Program-made: the position numbers and the translations under genes | Notes under the pieces: model-generated | The model's input: only the letters and a program-made list of their open reading frames with translations | The model's database searches: none | Told to the model about the DNA's origin: nothing | In this document: piece by piece, positions 6,223 through 53,040 of the stretch | Numbering within the stretch: position 1 is the first letter of the stretch | How the letters are laid out: every line of letters starts with the position of its first letter | Origin: a phage | Strand: one strand, 5' to 3' | DNA: 64,000 bases | Sequence record: OZ346228.1

Positions 6223-7050
6223 GTGAAGAGAGCCGTATATCCAGTTGAGTATGATCCTCTATTAAGAGTTTTCAACAATCAGTTAAGTTTTTATCAATTT
6301 TTAGCACAATACAATCCAGAAATCAATGTTGGTTTATCAGCTCTTCTGCCACCAACAGAATTCGTTATTGGCAGTGTTCACTATCCATGCAGAACGATTG
6401 TAGACTTCTTCCAGAAGATTGCAAAACACACAGGCCTGCCAATTGATACTGGTATTTCAACTATCCGTATGGGTGTTATTCTTCTGTTCTTCACAGAGAA
6501 CCTTGATGAAAGCACTTTAACACTGCAAAGCGGGGATGTCAATATCACACTAACTCCTTCAGTGTTTAAAGAGGTAGATGCTGCTTTCCAAGTTTCCGTG
6601 GCAGAGGGCCATCTATGGGACCCTGTAGGGATGCCTAAAAAAGTGACCATAAACGATGAGCAATGCAACATTGTTTATGAAGAAGATACCCAAACTTTCA
6701 CCATTGAGTGGCCTAAGAAACGTTCTCAGGTTGTAAATCTTGGACTGGTCTCTACGATAGCTCCACCGCCTGAACCAGAGCCGGAGCCGCCTGTAGGTCC
6801 TACTGAACCTGGTGGTGACGGTGAAGTTACTGTAGCAGATCCGCAAGATGTGACTGTATCCTCTTCCTCATTTGTAGCCATTGAGAATAAGGATGAAATC
6901 CTTAAACAGGCCGCAGCTCTTAACAACGAAGATGACAAAAGTGGTTCAAAAGATGCACTTCAAGCCTTCGCTAAAGAGTACGGTGTTACCTTAAGTAAGG
7001 CAAAAACTTTCCAAAATATGATGAAAGATTTTGAGGCTGCACTGGCATAA
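6223..7050 (+). CDS. virion protein with Pro/Glu-rich linker (head-associated, function unknown)
   Basis: 275 aa, GTG start with RBS CAGGAG; low-complexity PPPEPEPEPPVGPTEP linker; lies between capsid and tail genes. Confidence 0.4.
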   Translation: MKRAVYPVEYDPLLRVFNNQLSFYQFLAQYNPEINVGLSALLPPTEFVIGSVHYPCRTIVDFFQKIAKHTGLPIDTGISTIRMGVILLFFTENLDESTLTLQSGDVNITLTPSVFKEVDAAFQVSVAEGHLWDPVGMPKKVTINDEQCNIVYEEDTQTFTIEWPKKRSQVVNLGLVSTIAPPPEPEPEPPVGPTEPGGDGEVTVADPQDVTVSSSSFVAIENKDEILKQAAALNNEDDKSGSKDALQAFAKEYGVTLSKAKTFQNMMKDFEAALA

Positions 7051-7060
7051 TTTTGTTAAG

Positions 7061-7094
7061 GCCCCTTCCAAATCAGGAATGGGGCTTTATTTTT
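7061..7094 (+). terminator. rho-independent terminator (putative)
   Basis: GCCCC...GGGGC stem with internal pairing, followed by TTTATTTTT. Confidence 0.45.
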
Positions 7095-7109
7095 ACGAGG
7101 TATTTTCAA

Positions 7110-7730
7110 ATGGCATGGTATGAAGATGAAGAGATTATCCCGTCCCCGCCTAACCATGATGGTGTAGTCGATACCCCAGAAGAACCACCAAAAGAAGATC
7201 CTGTACCTCCGGAACCTGATCCAGACCAACCTCTTATTGATATTATGAGGTTATTGCTTGGCAATGTTGATGAGGAAACACTCCCTGACGGAGTAATTAA
7301 AACATTCCTTGACATGGAGAAGCTGAAACTAAATTATCCGGCAGACCCTGATAAGCTACCCCTGCTTAAGTACAATGTGCTTGTGCAGCTTGTGCGGTGG
7401 CTGATGATGCAGGAAGTGTCTAGTGGTAATGCAAGTATAACTTCCCGTTTGGAAAAGATAGGTGATGAGACTATAGAGATCCGTGGTGGATCTTCCTACG
7501 CCCAGTGGAAAGATTTCCTTGATTGGCTGCTGGCACACCCGGACTATGTAGATTCTGAGCTGGATGCTTACAGCAGAATGATTATCATTGGTGGTGTTCG
7601 TGTAGATGAAGGAATTCGGGTTAAATTTAATGAAAACAGCAACGGACCGTTCGATGTCCAGGGGATTACACCTATCAGTGGTCTAAATAACCAACCTCCT
7701 CGCCACCCAAGACGCAAACGCAGTTTTTAA
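7110..7730 (+). CDS. virion/head-tail joining protein (hypothetical)
   Basis: ATG at 7110 within reported ORF 7053..7730; Pro/acidic-rich N-terminus (PEEPPKEDPVPPEPDPDQP). Confidence 0.35.
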   Translation: MAWYEDEEIIPSPPNHDGVVDTPEEPPKEDPVPPEPDPDQPLIDIMRLLLGNVDEETLPDGVIKTFLDMEKLKLNYPADPDKLPLLKYNVLVQLVRWLMMQEVSSGNASITSRLEKIGDETIEIRGGSSYAQWKDFLDWLLAHPDYVDSELDAYSRMIIIGGVRVDEGIRVKFNENSNGPFDVQGITPISGLNNQPPRHPRRKRSF

Positions 7731-45948: not shown

Positions 45949-45966
45949 CAAGGGGATAAATAAAAA

Positions 45967-45991
45967 GGGGCCAAACGGCCCCTTTCTTTTT
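45967..45991. terminator. bidirectional rho-independent terminator
   Basis: GGGGCC-AAAC-GGCCCC flanked by A-run upstream and T-run downstream, between convergent operons. Confidence 0.7.
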
Positions 45992-45995
45992 ATAG

Positions 45996-48175: not shown

Positions 48176-48742
48176 TTATTCAAACTGCAATAGTAAGTCC
48201 ACCACCGCGCTAGGTCTGTCAACAAATTCCCCAGGTCCACATGCCCACAGAGGGTATCCGTCTACATACCGCCAAATCCAACCTGCAGTGTGGAGTTCGA
48301 GCAGGGCAGTACCGTCCTTACTGTCAACCACTCTTTCCCACAGTGTCGGGCAGCGAAGCTTGAGGATCGGATCCCCTCCCTTATACCCATCCATGTAGAT
48401 ACCCATTGCAAAGTTCAGCATCATCTTTTTGTGCACTGATCTTTTACTGAGGGTACTCATCACTTCCTCTTTGTGAATGTTTGTAAGCTTCTCCTTGGCT
48501 ACCCGCAGATCGTTGCAACCATTGTTCAGCAGATCTTCCAGACACTTGATCCGAAGGTCGTGAATGTCTTTGTCGTGTACCGTTGGCACAGGGTCGTAGC
48601 GGTATAGCACTGTTGATACAAGGTTGCTCGGGTGTGGGTCTGACAGCAACCCATAACCCCAATACTCTTCTGTATCTGAAAGGACAAGACACCCAATGTC
48701 TCTGTCAAGCTTTCCTGTGTTGTAAGCCACATTGACCGCCAT
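48176..48742 (-). CDS. hypothetical protein
   Basis: 188-aa ORF within reverse-strand operon. Confidence 0.4.
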   Translation of the reverse strand: MAVNVAYNTGKLDRDIGCLVLSDTEEYWGYGLLSDPHPSNLVSTVLYRYDPVPTVHDKDIHDLRIKCLEDLLNNGCNDLRVAKEKLTNIHKEEVMSTLSKRSVHKKMMLNFAMGIYMDGYKGGDPILKLRCPTLWERVVDSKDGTALLELHTAGWIWRYVDGYPLWACGPGEFVDRPSAVVDLLLQFE

Positions 48743-48744
48743 GA

Positions 48745-48990
48745 CTATAGCTCCACTAGCAAAGTGCTTTCAAAGTGACGTTCATGCAGACCGTTGTAAG
48801 GGACCACTTCCACAACGCCATCACGGACATATGGGGCCATCATGGTGGTATAATCTCCAAACGGGTTGGTATTGTCACTAACCACAACCACCTTCTGCCC
48901 TTCCTTGGCAGAGTGCCAAATAGATCTGCACTTCATCAGGTGTTCGAGAGCCCCAGGTAAAATTTTGTTACGTTCTTTACGGGTCTTCAT
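48745..48990 (-). CDS. small hypothetical protein (possibly related to the small paralog family)
   Basis: 81 aa; contains G-x-KVVVV..D hydrophobic beta-like core similar to the 49453..50480 paralogs. Confidence 0.35.
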   Translation of the reverse strand: MKTRKERNKILPGALEHLMKCRSIWHSAKEGQKVVVVSDNTNPFGDYTTMMAPYVRDGVVEVVPYNGLHERHFESTLLVEL

Positions 48991-49436
48991 AACAGGTATA
49001 GCTCCTTATGAAAGTGATCTTTTAATTTCTCACTGAGAAACTTCTTGATACCTTCCTCTAAAGTGTTTTCGATGTAGTCCAGCTTAACTGCTTCGATGGA
49101 CATATCATAGATCGCCAGCTCTAAGCTGTCAAGTCCCATCATAGCATGAACCATAAGATTTTCATCTTCAGATACATTCAGGGGACTTCCTATAACATCT
49201 GGAGGCAGAATAGTTTCCCAATTATTCTGGGTGGTAGTTCTCCCTCCCTCTACTTTACGGCGCAGTTCGAATGTGTTCTTAGTGTAGAACACTTCATAAG
49301 AAACGATACGACTGTCGCTCTCGTAATAAACGAAGTTCAGGTAGGAGCCTAGCCGCAGTCGGCAAACTTCTACCCCAAACCATTGTTTCTTATAAGAATT
49401 CAGGCTAATGCTGTCGCATTCACGTTTGCTCAACAC
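48987..49436 (-). CDS. hypothetical protein
   Basis: 149-aa ORF overlapping neighbour by 4 nt. Confidence 0.4.
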   Translation of the reverse strand: MLSKRECDSISLNSYKKQWFGVEVCRLRLGSYLNFVYYESDSRIVSYEVFYTKNTFELRRKVEGGRTTTQNNWETILPPDVIGSPLNVSEDENLMVHAMMGLDSLELAIYDMSIEAVKLDYIENTLEEGIKKFLSEKLKDHFHKELYLL

Positions 49437-49452
49437 GGCTCTCTCCTTTTTG

Positions 49453-49689
49453 TTAATCTTCGTAAATCAGGATTTCTGCTTTAGGTTTTCGTGCTTTCAT
49501 GTCCAGCTCTATCCAGTGCACCATAGCTGTTTCAAGAAAAACAGCCTGGATGCATCCGTCCTCAGCAGCGTGTCCTAGCAGCATAACAAGATCTTCTCCT
49601 TCGTCATCTGCACCACGAACATACAGAATCTCCCCGGGTTCAAAATCTTTAACAACCTGATTGTTGGATAATTTACGAATTTTCGCCAT
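49453..49689 (-). CDS. small paralog family member 4
   Basis: 78 aa; shares K-rich N-terminus, PG[TE]-hydrophobic motif (EPGEILYV) and acidic C-terminus with the three upstream 87-aa genes. Confidence 0.5.
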   Translation of the reverse strand: MAKIRKLSNNQVVKDFEPGEILYVRGADDEGEDLVMLLGHAAEDGCIQAVFLETAMVHWIELDMKARKPKAEILIYED

Positions 49690-49690
49690 A

Positions 49691-49954
49691 TTAGAAACCC
49701 TCTAAAAAGCTCTTGTAGAAAATAATTTCAGTATCTACACCAGTCACGATCTTATCGTTCCTGATTTCATCTGTAAGGTAGGTGTCAAAACGCAGAACCT
49801 GTGTGGTGTTGTCACACATCCACTCAGCTGTGACCATTGCGAAAATCTTAGCATCTTCATTATCTGGTGTGAATGTTACCACCTCACCGCACTTAAACTT
49901 TTCGATAGGCTGAGTGTTAGCTTTCGGTTCTGCGATAGTGATTTTTGTGGTCAT
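49691..49954 (-). CDS. small paralog family member 3
   Basis: 87 aa; motif KCGEVVTF; tandem with members 1, 2 and 4. Confidence 0.5.
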   Translation of the reverse strand: MTTKITIAEPKANTQPIEKFKCGEVVTFTPDNEDAKIFAMVTAEWMCDNTTQVLRFDTYLTDEIRNDKIVTGVDTEIIFYKSFLEGF

Positions 49955-50217
49955 TATTCTCCTCCTTCTTTTGAATAGCTTGTCTCTCCAAGGATGGTAA
50001 TTTTGGTGTCAAGCTCTGTAACTTTCATGTTTGGCGGCAGATCGTACAACTCATTATTTTCTAAATCGAACCCCCACACACAATGTTCTCCTGTTTTGAC
50101 AATCATAACTATGTTTTGAATGCCGTCTCCGTCGCAACTTACCACAGTCCCACACGGAAAGCTGTCTGCACGCTTTTTGTTCTTCACCTTAGAATTGAAT
50201 ACAATGCTGGTAGCCAT
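49954..50217 (-). CDS. small paralog family member 2
   Basis: 87 aa; motif PCGTVVSC; stop/start overlap with neighbours. Confidence 0.5.
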   Translation of the reverse strand: MATSIVFNSKVKNKKRADSFPCGTVVSCDGDGIQNIVMIVKTGEHCVWGFDLENNELYDLPPNMKVTELDTKITILGETSYSKEGGE

Positions 50218-50480
50218 TATTGTTCCTCCACCATAACTTCGCCAATAATTTCTATGCAGGCATCCATTTCTGTAACAACCAAACTGTGAGGTAGTTCTAC
50301 AAACACCTTTCTGAACAGGTCAAATACCCCAACATATATGTTTGCAGGATGTGATTTTACAACAAGTGCTGTATTCACATCCCCAAGTTCATCAACAAAC
50401 ATCACCACAGTGCCTGGAGCTACTGAGGACAGATACTTCTTAGTTTTACGGTTTGATGCAAATTTTAACTCTGTTGCCAT
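50217..50480 (-). CDS. small paralog family member 1
   Basis: 87 aa; motif APGTVVMFVD; first of four tandem same-length genes directly downstream of the metallopeptidase-VWA gene. Confidence 0.5.
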   Translation of the reverse strand: MATELKFASNRKTKKYLSSVAPGTVVMFVDELGDVNTALVVKSHPANIYVGVFDLFRKVFVELPHSLVVTEMDACIEIIGEVMVEEQ

Positions 50481-50495
50481 AAATAACCTCCTCTC

Positions 50496-51977
50496 TTACT
50501 TAGCGTACTCGATTAATTCCACAGTTTTACCAAAGCTCGGGATATAATTTTTATTATACCCCTCAGTGAGGACCCATAGAGTATCGTACTTTTTCCACTT
50601 GTTGTCAACAACCTTTTGTTCAAAGTTATGCTCAAAGTATAGGTCGGTCAGGACGATGACATCTTTTGCATTAGGTATGTTGGCATCCAGATACTCGAAC
50701 ACGCAAGCAGCTGTTGTGCCCCATGTTGAGTGGACCTCATAGTTGATCATCTCGTCTATGTTGCCGCGAGTGTATACTTTAACCTCTCCAACCTCAGTTG
50801 ACCAACAGAACATTGTAACCTTAAACTCTTTATACAGATTGCACAATCCGGTGATTTCATTGAACATTTTCTTTAAAGTTCTTTGAGAGATCGAGCCAGA
50901 AACGTCTAAAGCCACCACAATATCTATAGTGTTTTCCGGATTACGACCAGGAACAATAACGTGCTGGTTCTTGTTTATAGCCCCAACTTTTCGCATTGTG
51001 CTGGTCAAAGACCCAGATCGGCGACCAGGTTTTCTGTAGGTCAGTTCGGCCTTTCTTTTAGACAACATACGTTGCTTAATGATGTCTATATAGTTGATTA
51101 CAGGCTTACCTCTGTTCTTGACAAACTCACGCACCGCCTCAGGGCAACGGCCTCCGGACGCTTGCATTGCTGCCTCCAGCATATCACCAGAGTCCTGCAT
51201 GGCCTGATCTTTATCAGATTGGCTGATTACAGGTTGTGGCTGATCATACCCCATAGCCTTTCCAAGATTATCACTGGTGCCACCGTTCCCACTCATGTGA
51301 TCATCGGTTTGTCGCTTATCACTTTGAGAGTTCTCACCTTTACCGTTCTTACTTTTACCGTTATTCTGATCTCTTTGCTTATCAAGAACTGCATAAACGT
51401 TCTCAGCAATCCATCCATGAAACTTCATGTCGCAGTAGCAGCTGGCTAAGAAGCCAAAAGGCTTACCTTTCATGAACGTAGTGCTTTTCCCCTTCGGGAA
51501 GAAAACACAAGGGGGTTTGCTAAAGTCAACCACAAGGCCTGTGTTGATAACGTGATCACAAGCAATATTGAACAGTTCCGGCTCAAAGCTTTTACCACGG
51601 ACTAGGTGATCACAGATAATATGCCCCACCTCATGTGACAGAAGGAAGGCCACCTCTTTCACAGATTTTGGGGAATAGAAAACTTCAGCCATCTCAAACT
51701 GCTCGTCAGTTAGAGAAGCCTTAAGAATAGCCTTGCGCTCATCAGCCAATCCCATAATGAACTCAGGACTGTAATAGATGCGTTTATGGTCGGTTGCCAT
51801 GGTGGAGCACCATGTGTGGTTTTCTACGAACTGCAACCCTGACAGTAGTGTGCCATAAAACGGCAGCTTTTCAAGGAGATACATACGTGCAGCCTGCAAC
51901 ATTCTCAGGGCATCATCTTTCTGCGAGGCAATGATTTCTGAACTTCTGCTATCCATTAAAACTCCAGAAGGGGCCAT
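50496..51977 (-). CDS. putative zinc metallopeptidase domain + von Willebrand factor A (VWA) domain protein
   Basis: 493 aa; HExxH motif (HEVGHIICDH) in N-terminal half, Gly/Ser/Asp-rich linker, C-terminal MIDAS-like motif DIVVALDVSGS. Confidence 0.7.
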   Translation of the reverse strand: MAPSGVLMDSRSSEIIASQKDDALRMLQAARMYLLEKLPFYGTLLSGLQFVENHTWCSTMATDHKRIYYSPEFIMGLADERKAILKASLTDEQFEMAEVFYSPKSVKEVAFLLSHEVGHIICDHLVRGKSFEPELFNIACDHVINTGLVVDFSKPPCVFFPKGKSTTFMKGKPFGFLASCYCDMKFHGWIAENVYAVLDKQRDQNNGKSKNGKGENSQSDKRQTDDHMSGNGGTSDNLGKAMGYDQPQPVISQSDKDQAMQDSGDMLEAAMQASGGRCPEAVREFVKNRGKPVINYIDIIKQRMLSKRKAELTYRKPGRRSGSLTSTMRKVGAINKNQHVIVPGRNPENTIDIVVALDVSGSISQRTLKKMFNEITGLCNLYKEFKVTMFCWSTEVGEVKVYTRGNIDEMINYEVHSTWGTTAACVFEYLDANIPNAKDVIVLTDLYFEHNFEQKVVDNKWKKYDTLWVLTEGYNKNYIPSFGKTVELIEYAK

Positions 51978-51989
51978 CGGCCCCTGTCA

Positions 51990-53030
51990 TTATTTAACGT
52001 GTTTGAAAATACCTGCCAACTCGGTCATTGTCATGCGGGTGGTCTTCATAAGATCTGTCATAGCTTTCTCCATAATTGGAGATACTACCATAAAGTTTCC
52101 TTTAGTGAAACCTTTATTCCAGTCGGTCACCAACAGGGGTTTAAGTCCAGCTCCAAGACGTTCACCAGTTAAAGCACAGCATTTGCGAATATACGAACTC
52201 TTAAATTGGCTGAACGACAGATCAACTTTCATACCTACATCGTAGAACGTTTGACAATAGAAAGTGTAAGCTTTGGCAATCTCAACATCATCAGGTAGTG
52301 CAGGAACCTCTTCTGTAAGCTCCTCTTCGACCTCCTGAGTCTCTTTTTCCTCTTCATGCACCTGTTGCGTCATTTCTTCAATCTCTTCTGTGATAGGCTC
52401 GTTTACAATGTCGGAAATGTGCTTCTTGGGTGCACGATAAGTAACTTTAGACATCGGTAGCATATCTTCCTCCTCTTCTTCGTCAAAGAGTGCTAGTTTA
52501 TCCTCTTCCGTTCCATATTGCAAGATGAAATCTTCAAAAGTATAATCACCTTTCAATTTCTCCATACGCTCTTCGCTCAGGTGGAGCATCATCTGCTGGA
52601 CAATTTTTCGATCAGTTTCGTCTTTAATCAAGACTGCAGTCTTTTTATCTACCAGACAGTCCTTTAGAGAGTTGCATCTCAATCCCACCACACAACAGTT
52701 ATCAACCGCATAAGGACCTTCATCATCTATCCGCTCCAGAGATGGGTAGAAAGGATTCCCCAGCCCGTTTTCATCTGTGTGCATGTCAAAAGGTATAAGG
52801 GTATAGTCGCATACTCCATCTCCTAAAAGTTTTTTACCAAATAGGAGGTATTCTTCCCATGACAGGTCGAACTCTATATCTCGTTTCCGTGCGTTATTCT
52901 GTTTGCGTCTATATTTTTTGAGCAAGCGCTCTAACTCTTCTGGTGTATAATATTTTTCAAGATTCATGAGTCGTCTCTCGTGCTCTGTAAGTGAAGAAAT
53001 CGTATCAATTGTCTCAACAGATGTCAACAT
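51990..53030 (-). CDS. tandem His-Me-finger (HNH-like) endonuclease-domain protein
   Basis: ATG at 53030 (track starts at TTG 53033); first domain C.Y..PSLERIDDEGPYAVDNCCVVGLRCNSLK; degenerate second copy ALTGERL..LLVTDWNKGFTKGNFMVV; acidic linker between. Confidence 0.45.
   Translation of the reverse strand: MLTSVETIDTISSLTEHERRLMNLEKYYTPEELERLLKKYRRKQNNARKRDIEFDLSWEEYLLFGKKLLGDGVCDYTLIPFDMHTDENGLGNPFYPSLERIDDEGPYAVDNCCVVGLRCNSLKDCLVDKKTAVLIKDETDRKIVQQMMLHLSEERMEKLKGDYTFEDFILQYGTEEDKLALFDEEEEEDMLPMSKVTYRAPKKHISDIVNEPITEEIEEMTQQVHEEEKETQEVEEELTEEVPALPDDVEIAKAYTFYCQTFYDVGMKVDLSFSQFKSSYIRKCCALTGERLGAGLKPLLVTDWNKGFTKGNFMVVSPIMEKAMTDLMKTTRMTMTELAGIFKHVK
52431..52459. repeat. 29-bp inverted repeat, left copy (reverse complement of TACCGATGTCTAAAGTTACTTATCGTGCA)
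   Basis: Reverse complement of 52431..52459 matches 54293..54321 exactly; lies in linker of tandem-HNH-like gene. Confidence 0.85.
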
Positions 53031-53040
53031 CAAAAACGTG

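Follow-up and report, generated by a model that had tools for sequence, protein, structure and literature searches.

Four small tandem genes of a Vequintavirus operon, probably paralogs with a predicted SH3/Tudor-like barrel fold

The closest described precedent for the locus reported here is the GoF/MotB.1/Frd.2 group of phage T4, comprising LSm/SH3-like five-stranded barrels encoded in early or host-takeover regions, with several paralogs per genome, kinship at the profile and fold level and a lineage-restricted distribution; under laboratory conditions these T4 genes are non-essential, with no settled function (PMC12152347). We have analyzed a 64,000-nucleotide (nt) stretch of phage DNA (record OZ346228.1, here called the window, with all positions numbered on the whole stretch) that carries four consecutive minus-strand genes, designated A to D, between 49453 and 50480. 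Our data suggest that these genes comprise a tandem-expanded family of small acidic barrel proteins, with C and D forming a nearly frozen pair next to a first slot that is swapped among related phages. The T4 proteins bear extra C-terminal domains and their genes are dispersed, whereas the proteins of the rV5-like phages, to which the window belongs, are single-domain and are encoded by tandem, translationally coupled genes. Homology to the T4 proteins was considered and rejected, with hhalign of A3 yielding probabilities of 0.4% for GoF and 0.1% for MotB.1. As T4 already has lineage-specific small β-barrel early proteins, the array does not represent a new kind of system.

The window derives from a Vequintavirus, with the region 48700-52000 matching Escherichia phage naswa (Vequintavirus murica) at 99.9% identity and 119 rV5-like phage records at 90-99%. 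Gene A (50217-50480, 87 amino acids (aa), naswa_83) and gene B (49954-50217, 87 aa, naswa_82) are the two variable-slot members, both assigned to PHROG 10698 (E=5e-41 for B). Gene C (49691-49954, 87 aa, naswa_81, PHROG 12861) is the highly conserved member, encoding a protein identical in sequence to rV5 gp015, and gene D (49453-49689, 78 aa, naswa_80, PHROG 12046), the ortholog of rV5 gp016, is conserved across genomes while being the most divergent, and only a probable, member of the array. The naswa annotation calls each of the four a hypothetical protein. An initial annotation, made from the letters of the window alone, had described four reverse-strand open reading frames of these lengths, with stop/start overlaps, directly after the gene at 50496..51977. 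We recovered the four frames at the same positions on the minus strand; the A/B and B/C junctions are indeed TAATG overlaps, with a single nucleotide separating C from D instead, and the start of A lies 15 nt past the stop codon of the upstream gene, which encodes a 493-aa DUF2201_N/DUF2201 protein (metallopeptidase plus VWA). Each start codon of A-D is preceded by a Shine-Dalgarno sequence, that of B being strong. Within each type, the ratio of nonsynonymous to synonymous substitution (dN/dS) is 0-0.33 (Nei-Gojobori, with orthologs from seven other genomes), with values of 0-0.15 for B and 0-0.04 for C, and C differs from three relatives by 16-19 synonymous changes and no nonsynonymous change. 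Given these low ratios and the purely synonymous changes in C, A-D are real genes under purifying selection. They are also translationally coupled. The encoded proteins have a net charge of -4 to -7 and an isoelectric point (pI) of 4.5-5.0, with a basic N-terminal stretch in each and no transmembrane segments in any of the four.

With respect to the relationship among these proteins, blastp aligns A and B over all 87 aa at 36% identity, the two have PHROG 10698 and pVOG VOG5597 in common, and the motif F-x-x-G-[TE]-[VI]-[VL] is found in all of A-D. Against a background of every stop-to-stop segment of the window that reaches 50 aa (446 in all), an A/B-type hidden Markov model (HMM) gave C the third rank, at E=9.8e-5, and D the fourth, at E=0.27; upon addition of C to the profile, D was recovered at E=1.2e-4, with the next window segment at 0.56. 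A profile-profile comparison, which the initial annotation had proposed as a check, was carried out with hhalign and aligned A/B with C over 74 columns (probability 92.7%, P=4e-7) and A/B with D in a colinear fashion over 67 columns (probability 70.5%, P=4e-5). Based on these HMM ranks and hhalign results, we place A, B and C firmly in one family, as judged by profile similarity, and consider D a probable member, less firm than C, with its membership further backed by agreement in position, size, charge and predicted fold. Full-length sequence and profile similarity is thus what we found across A-D, and the shared pattern described in the initial annotation is real and beyond chance, as evidenced by the motif, the acidic pI, the basic N-terminal stretch and the HMM and hhalign scores. 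The three PHROGs involved (10698, 12861 and 12046), which the catalogues keep apart, are accordingly merged here into a single family, a link that is new. The suggestion that the 81-aa protein at 48745-48990 (protein E) may be a fifth, diverged member did not hold up: hhalign against the family gave 0.1%, phmmer found nothing (best E 2.6), and the protein falls instead in PHROGs 4868 and 12865, with a basic character and a net charge of +1. A search covering 131 kb of the naswa genome (138.6 kb in total) detected no further family member.

AlphaFold2 models of A and D, built on the family alignment, are both all-beta, with a predicted local distance difference test (pLDDT) score of 80.5 for A and 80.1 for D. 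The two models have five core strands in common, in the same order, while model A is extended by an extra strand at the N-terminus and a long one at the C-terminus. As modelled, A and D are SH3/Tudor-like small β-barrels in a superfold sense, with no preferred family, showing resemblance to the uL2 SH3-like, Tudor (SMN, TDRD, TDRKH), PWWP, chromo, EF-P and KOW domains and to the UvrD/PcrA C-terminal Tudor and IdeR-type SH3-like domains. The structure prediction proposed in the initial annotation has therefore returned a common predicted fold for A and D, as would be anticipated for one family, with the caveat that the alignment used for D included A, B and C. The likeness to the Tudor/KOW/uL2-SH3/PWWP superfold is one of fold only, with identity to the matches at 5-20%, and the resemblance to Sm/LSm likewise appears to be one of fold class. 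Membership in the Tudor family is not borne out, given no Pfam match, no conserved aromatic set and only F20 widely kept, nor is membership of the KOW/NusG-Spt5/uL24 type, as no KOW glycine pattern is present in the family alignment. Scans of A-D against Pfam, NCBIfam and PHROG returned only their own PHROGs of unknown function, with no Pfam match to KOW, CarD_TRCF_RID, LSM or Tudor at E<=1, and the only PDB sequence matched in a profile search was non-significant (2mmp_A, E=0.12). In a Foldseek comparison with predicted viral structures, we retrieved the family itself and many uncharacterized phage proteins of 70-90 aa. Among these, the barrels in BFVD from N4 (Gp21), Serratia phage Hera and Vibrio phage Thalassa are alike in size and predicted fold (Foldseek E 1e-4 to 1e-2, template modelling (TM) score 0.5-0.7), but their identity to the family is 8-22% and none was recovered by an exhaustive HMM search. 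The genes had previously been catalogued as of unknown function, and the fold assignment for the three PHROGs, which is model-based, is new here.

The family seems to be confined to one genus. Word-indexed searching of 5.8 billion proteins, done twice, gave 23 and 44 clusters, and 9 matches came from the exhaustive HMM search, which covered 1.84 billion representatives; all of these lie on Vequintavirus-type contigs, so that no relative outside such contigs was found among the proteins searched; by tblastn, family genes were present in 118 phage records, every one a Vequintavirus. The copy number varies among these phages and their neighbors. Four family genes are carried by this window, by Murica-type phages and by L010-L013 and L016 of the sequences compared, and three (gp014, gp015 corresponding to C, and gp016 corresponding to D) by rV5, L003 and L004. 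An uncultured sister lineage (L005-L008), with a peptidase 61-62% identical to that of the window, has a single family gene of 83 aa in the same slot, and L009, Seunavirus (SSE121, EC152) and the phi92-like UPEC06 have none. In addition, P0045, a gp014-type member, stands alone in a different neighborhood on contig L018, with no adjacent peptidase. The peptidase-VWA gene, for its part, is found in 462 phage records, ranging from Escherichia to Pseudomonas, Vibrio and jumbo phages, and occurs without family genes in L009, Seunavirus, UPEC06 and 344 further phage records. With the family limited to Vequintavirus and the peptidase spread over many genera, we conclude that the array is a recent, genus-level tandem expansion and that the array and the peptidase-VWA are not obligate partners. 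These data support the earlier proposal of a tandem array of small paralogs with the same fold, now as a lineage-specific expansion with a 0/1/3/4 copy series that is new here; a functional tie to the peptidase beyond adjacency found no such support, since the two distributions differ and the peptidase often occurs without the family.

Comparison of the window with rV5 revealed a swappable cassette at 49960..50475 (minus strand), occupied by A+B here and by a single gp014-type gene in rV5. The flanking proteins of the two phages are 98-100% identical; A and B are ~40% identical to gp014. Nucleotide identity to rV5 falls from ~95% to ~50% at the start codon of A and recovers at the start of C, and because identity collapses and recovers at gene starts, A+B and gp014 are alternative cassettes, with breakpoints at gene boundaries. 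Approximately 44 of the 118 genomes have A+B, with 74 of the 118 having one gene. Cassette type does not go along with flank divergence, as exemplified by a synonymous distance (dS) of the peptidase of 0.13 to rV5 (gp014-type) vs. 0.33 to ECP26 (A+B type), a pattern which points to recombination. Each type also has deep alleles of its own: A2 (P0026) at 56% identity to A, B2 (P0017) at 66-70% to B, and P0045 at 61% to gp014. The notion of diversification put forward in the initial annotation thus survives in a limited form, in that the first slot varies between otherwise near-identical genomes.

In contrast to the swappable first slot, C and D are nearly frozen, and this contrast is new here. 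C shows 94-100% aa identity across the 118 phage records. Against the divergent lineage L016, C and D are 96.6% and 92.3% identical, respectively, vs. 37-82% for their operon neighbors; the synonymous sites of the neighbors are saturated (proportion of synonymous differences (pS) 0.72-0.91) vs. a pS of ~0.45 for C and D, with omega at ~0.03-0.04. By this comparison, no other protein of the operon is as well conserved as C and D, which are a strongly constrained pair; the pair also seems to have passed between lineages at a later time than the sequences around it. These findings do not agree with diversifying selection on the family, as had been suggested originally, because dN/dS stays at 0-0.33 within every type, C and D are the most conserved in the operon and the variation consists only of allele replacement in the first slot. 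As a separate observation, C differs from its counterpart in EcoIv14a_Aya (L013:1501-1764) at 43 of ~54 synonymous sites, the protein being 94% identical, next to neighbors with a dS of 0.1-0.4 in this comparison; the locus is mosaic at single-gene resolution.

The array resides within a minus-strand block headed by a sigma70-type promoter (52999..53027, minus strand) that is identical to the annotated rV5 P11, with the consensus scan showing TTGACA-17-TACGAT and an extended -10 TG. The block is closed by a bidirectional rho-independent terminator (45958..45993, scan match at 45964-45985), which is the unchanged annotated rV5 terminator between genes 26 and 27. In the rV5 paper, genes 11-26 were described as one transcription unit (PMC3606486), and P11 and the terminator bracket the minus-strand block matching this unit. 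The operon opens with an Srd-like gene (a postulated anti-sigma factor), followed by the peptidase-VWA gene, and the divergent unit carries a MoxR ATPase, a SleB-like hydrolase and rIIA. The array lies outside the late/structural unit, and the mass spectrometry tables of the rV5 virion, which represent a single data set, list no gp014-016 peptides (PMC3606486); a role as virion structural proteins is thus not what these data show.

Based on these results, we postulate that one gene for a small acidic cytoplasmic barrel has expanded in tandem from one to three to four copies, that A-D are co-transcribed and translationally coupled in an operon driven by a sigma70-type promoter, and that each paralog would most likely be a single-domain module that binds a partner of its own while the phage takes over the host. 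The residues common to the paralogs are those of the scaffold only, namely the F-x-x-G-[TE]-V-V strand and core hydrophobics, and this restriction argues that the paralogs most likely bind different partners. The dependence of the operon on host RNA polymerase implies that expression is probably early; the strong constraint on C and D implies conserved partners, and the interchangeable alleles of the first slot imply a variable partner or an accessory role, with A+B or gp014 being exchanged via recombination among co-circulating phages. The early timing, the role as binding modules and the choice of host rather than phage targets are what we infer from this evidence. As an overall explanation, we give this proposal, that the tandem-expanded acidic barrels act as separate binding modules in host takeover, about an even chance of being correct. 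Several points weigh against it: 1) the direct similarity between C and D is weak (hhalign probability 2.6%, P=0.018, 19 aligned columns), making D the weakest link; 2) the model of D, owing to the presence of A/B/C in its alignment, is no independent test of a common fold; 3) early timing is deduced only from the sigma70-type promoter and the gene neighborhood; 4) the literature on phage DUF2201, rV5 loci and Vequintavirus transcriptomics yielded nothing on these genes; and 5) tight coupling and conservation of C and D would fit equally well with subunits of one complex.

The last point leads to the alternative to which we assign the most weight, even though we deem it unlikely, namely that A-D are subunits of a single hetero-oligomer with C-D as an invariant core and the slot-1 proteins as exchangeable specificity subunits. 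Translational coupling would then ensure equimolar production, as the TAATG overlaps and the 1-nt spacer would allow; the extreme constraint on C and D, with synonymous divergence lower than that of the flanks as if the pair were inherited as one unit, is in keeping with this, as are the oligomerization of many small β-barrels (Sm/Hfq, Tudor) (PMC12152347) and the extra N- and C-terminal strands of model A, which could pair between subunits. On the other hand, the copy number of 1/3/4 and the lone members in L005-L008 and, in another context, in L018 argue that the fold functions without the other paralogs. A version in which the invariant C-D core and A+B or gp014 make up a modular host-targeting complex strikes us as improbable; if true, it would mirror, with small proteins, a "constant core plus variable adaptor" arrangement that subverts or evades a host pathway. 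Slightly ahead of that version, and still improbable, is the possibility that A-D bind nucleic acid or the transcription/translation machinery in the manner of KOW/Tudor-RID/uL2-SH3 domains, docking on RNA polymerase or the ribosome and redirecting host gene expression together with the Srd-like anti-sigma factor. The Srd-like gene at the operon head is compatible with such a role, as is the finding that GoF(D25Y), a T4 LSm-like early protein, alters mRNA stability (PMC12152347); however, fold matches of this kind are intermixed with unrelated Tudor, PWWP and chromo domains at equal Z, the Pfam scans above gave none of the relevant families, and the overall acidity is unfavorable to nucleic-acid binding.

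We attach still lower probability, and an equally low one, to each of two remaining alternatives. One holds that A-D serve the adjacent MoxR-associated VWA-metallopeptidase, whether as its substrates, its adaptors or its regulators, as the array follows this gene by 15 nt in all Vequintavirus genomes and the MoxR ATPase gene is nearby, being directly beside the peptidase in UPEC06. The co-occurrence expected of an accessory subunit was not seen, with 462 phage records for the peptidase vs. 118 for the family, with L009, Seunavirus and the phi92-like phages having a peptidase and no member, and with the L018 member having no neighboring peptidase. According to the other, A-D are anti-defense proteins, with the variable slot following variable host immune systems. 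The proteins are small, acidic, genus-restricted and encoded in an early-type operon, and one slot has deep allelic lineages that recombine; deep alleles exchanged via recombination are typical of counter-defense loci. Against this stand the invariance of C and D, the lack of similarity to any characterized anti-defense protein in sequence and structure searches, and the reported exceptional sensitivity of Vequintaviruses to restriction-modification and abortive infection (Abi), with minor differences from phage to phage (PMC8594841). The BASEL phenotypes provided no usable link of cassette type to defense sensitivity. The suggestion in the initial annotation that such proteins may be inhibitors or adaptors for variable host targets is still a plausible one. 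Separate binding modules for host takeover remain the reading that we favor.

Few E. coli myoviruses are isolated as often as the rV5-like phages, which serve in phage typing and in work on therapy, and most of their non-structural genes are without an assigned function. Four hypothetical proteins are now provided with a predicted fold and an evolutionary structure, and the array constitutes a small, well-defined target for work on host takeover or host range.

Several additional observations pertain to the surrounding genes. The public labels of the product of 50496-51977 (minus strand; DUF2201_N metallopeptidase plus DUF2201 VWA) vary among "anti-sigma factor", "HNH endonuclease", "metallopeptidase" and "VWA-like", with PHROG 1314 stating HNH endonuclease; Pfam backs only the peptidase/VWA reading. 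In the RefSeq record of rV5, this gene is broken into gp012 and gp013 by an apparent frameshift, and in UPEC06 it directly follows the MoxR ATPase gene. The Srd-like gene at 51990-53033 (minus strand) has PHROG matches labelled "HNH endonuclease", "decoy of host sigma70" and "Srd anti-sigma factor"; its product has an acidic, Glu-rich central stretch, is 89% identical to rV5 gp011 and 55% to L016, and diverges far quicker than C and D. Seunavirus harbors a gene of 85-86 aa between the Srd-like gene and the peptidase (L020:2178-2435, L021:2168-2428; SSE121 gp111 is 85 aa), which might be an analogous small protein, with no relation to the family detectable by the family HMM (E>10).

Downstream of the array, protein F (48987-49436, minus strand, 149 aa, rV5 gp017) is called a "tail protein" in RefSeq and in PHROG 6790. 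This label is probably a propagated misannotation, because the gene belongs to a sigma70-driven, non-structural operon and the protein is absent from the rV5 virion list. Protein F is 47-49% conserved in the sister lineage, where its gene comes directly after the single family member. The 188-aa protein encoded downstream of E (48176-48742) has two tandem, diverged copies in L005-L008 (about 6400-7600), which are 25-33% identical to the window protein and add a further case of local tandem duplication within this operon. Finally, 16 GenBank records named "Campylobacter phage" (e.g., MG065635.1, host Campylobacter jejuni) are 98-99.6% identical to E. coli rV5-like phages across this region, and such a match to E. 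coli phages suggests that these records stem from mislabelled or contaminant isolates.
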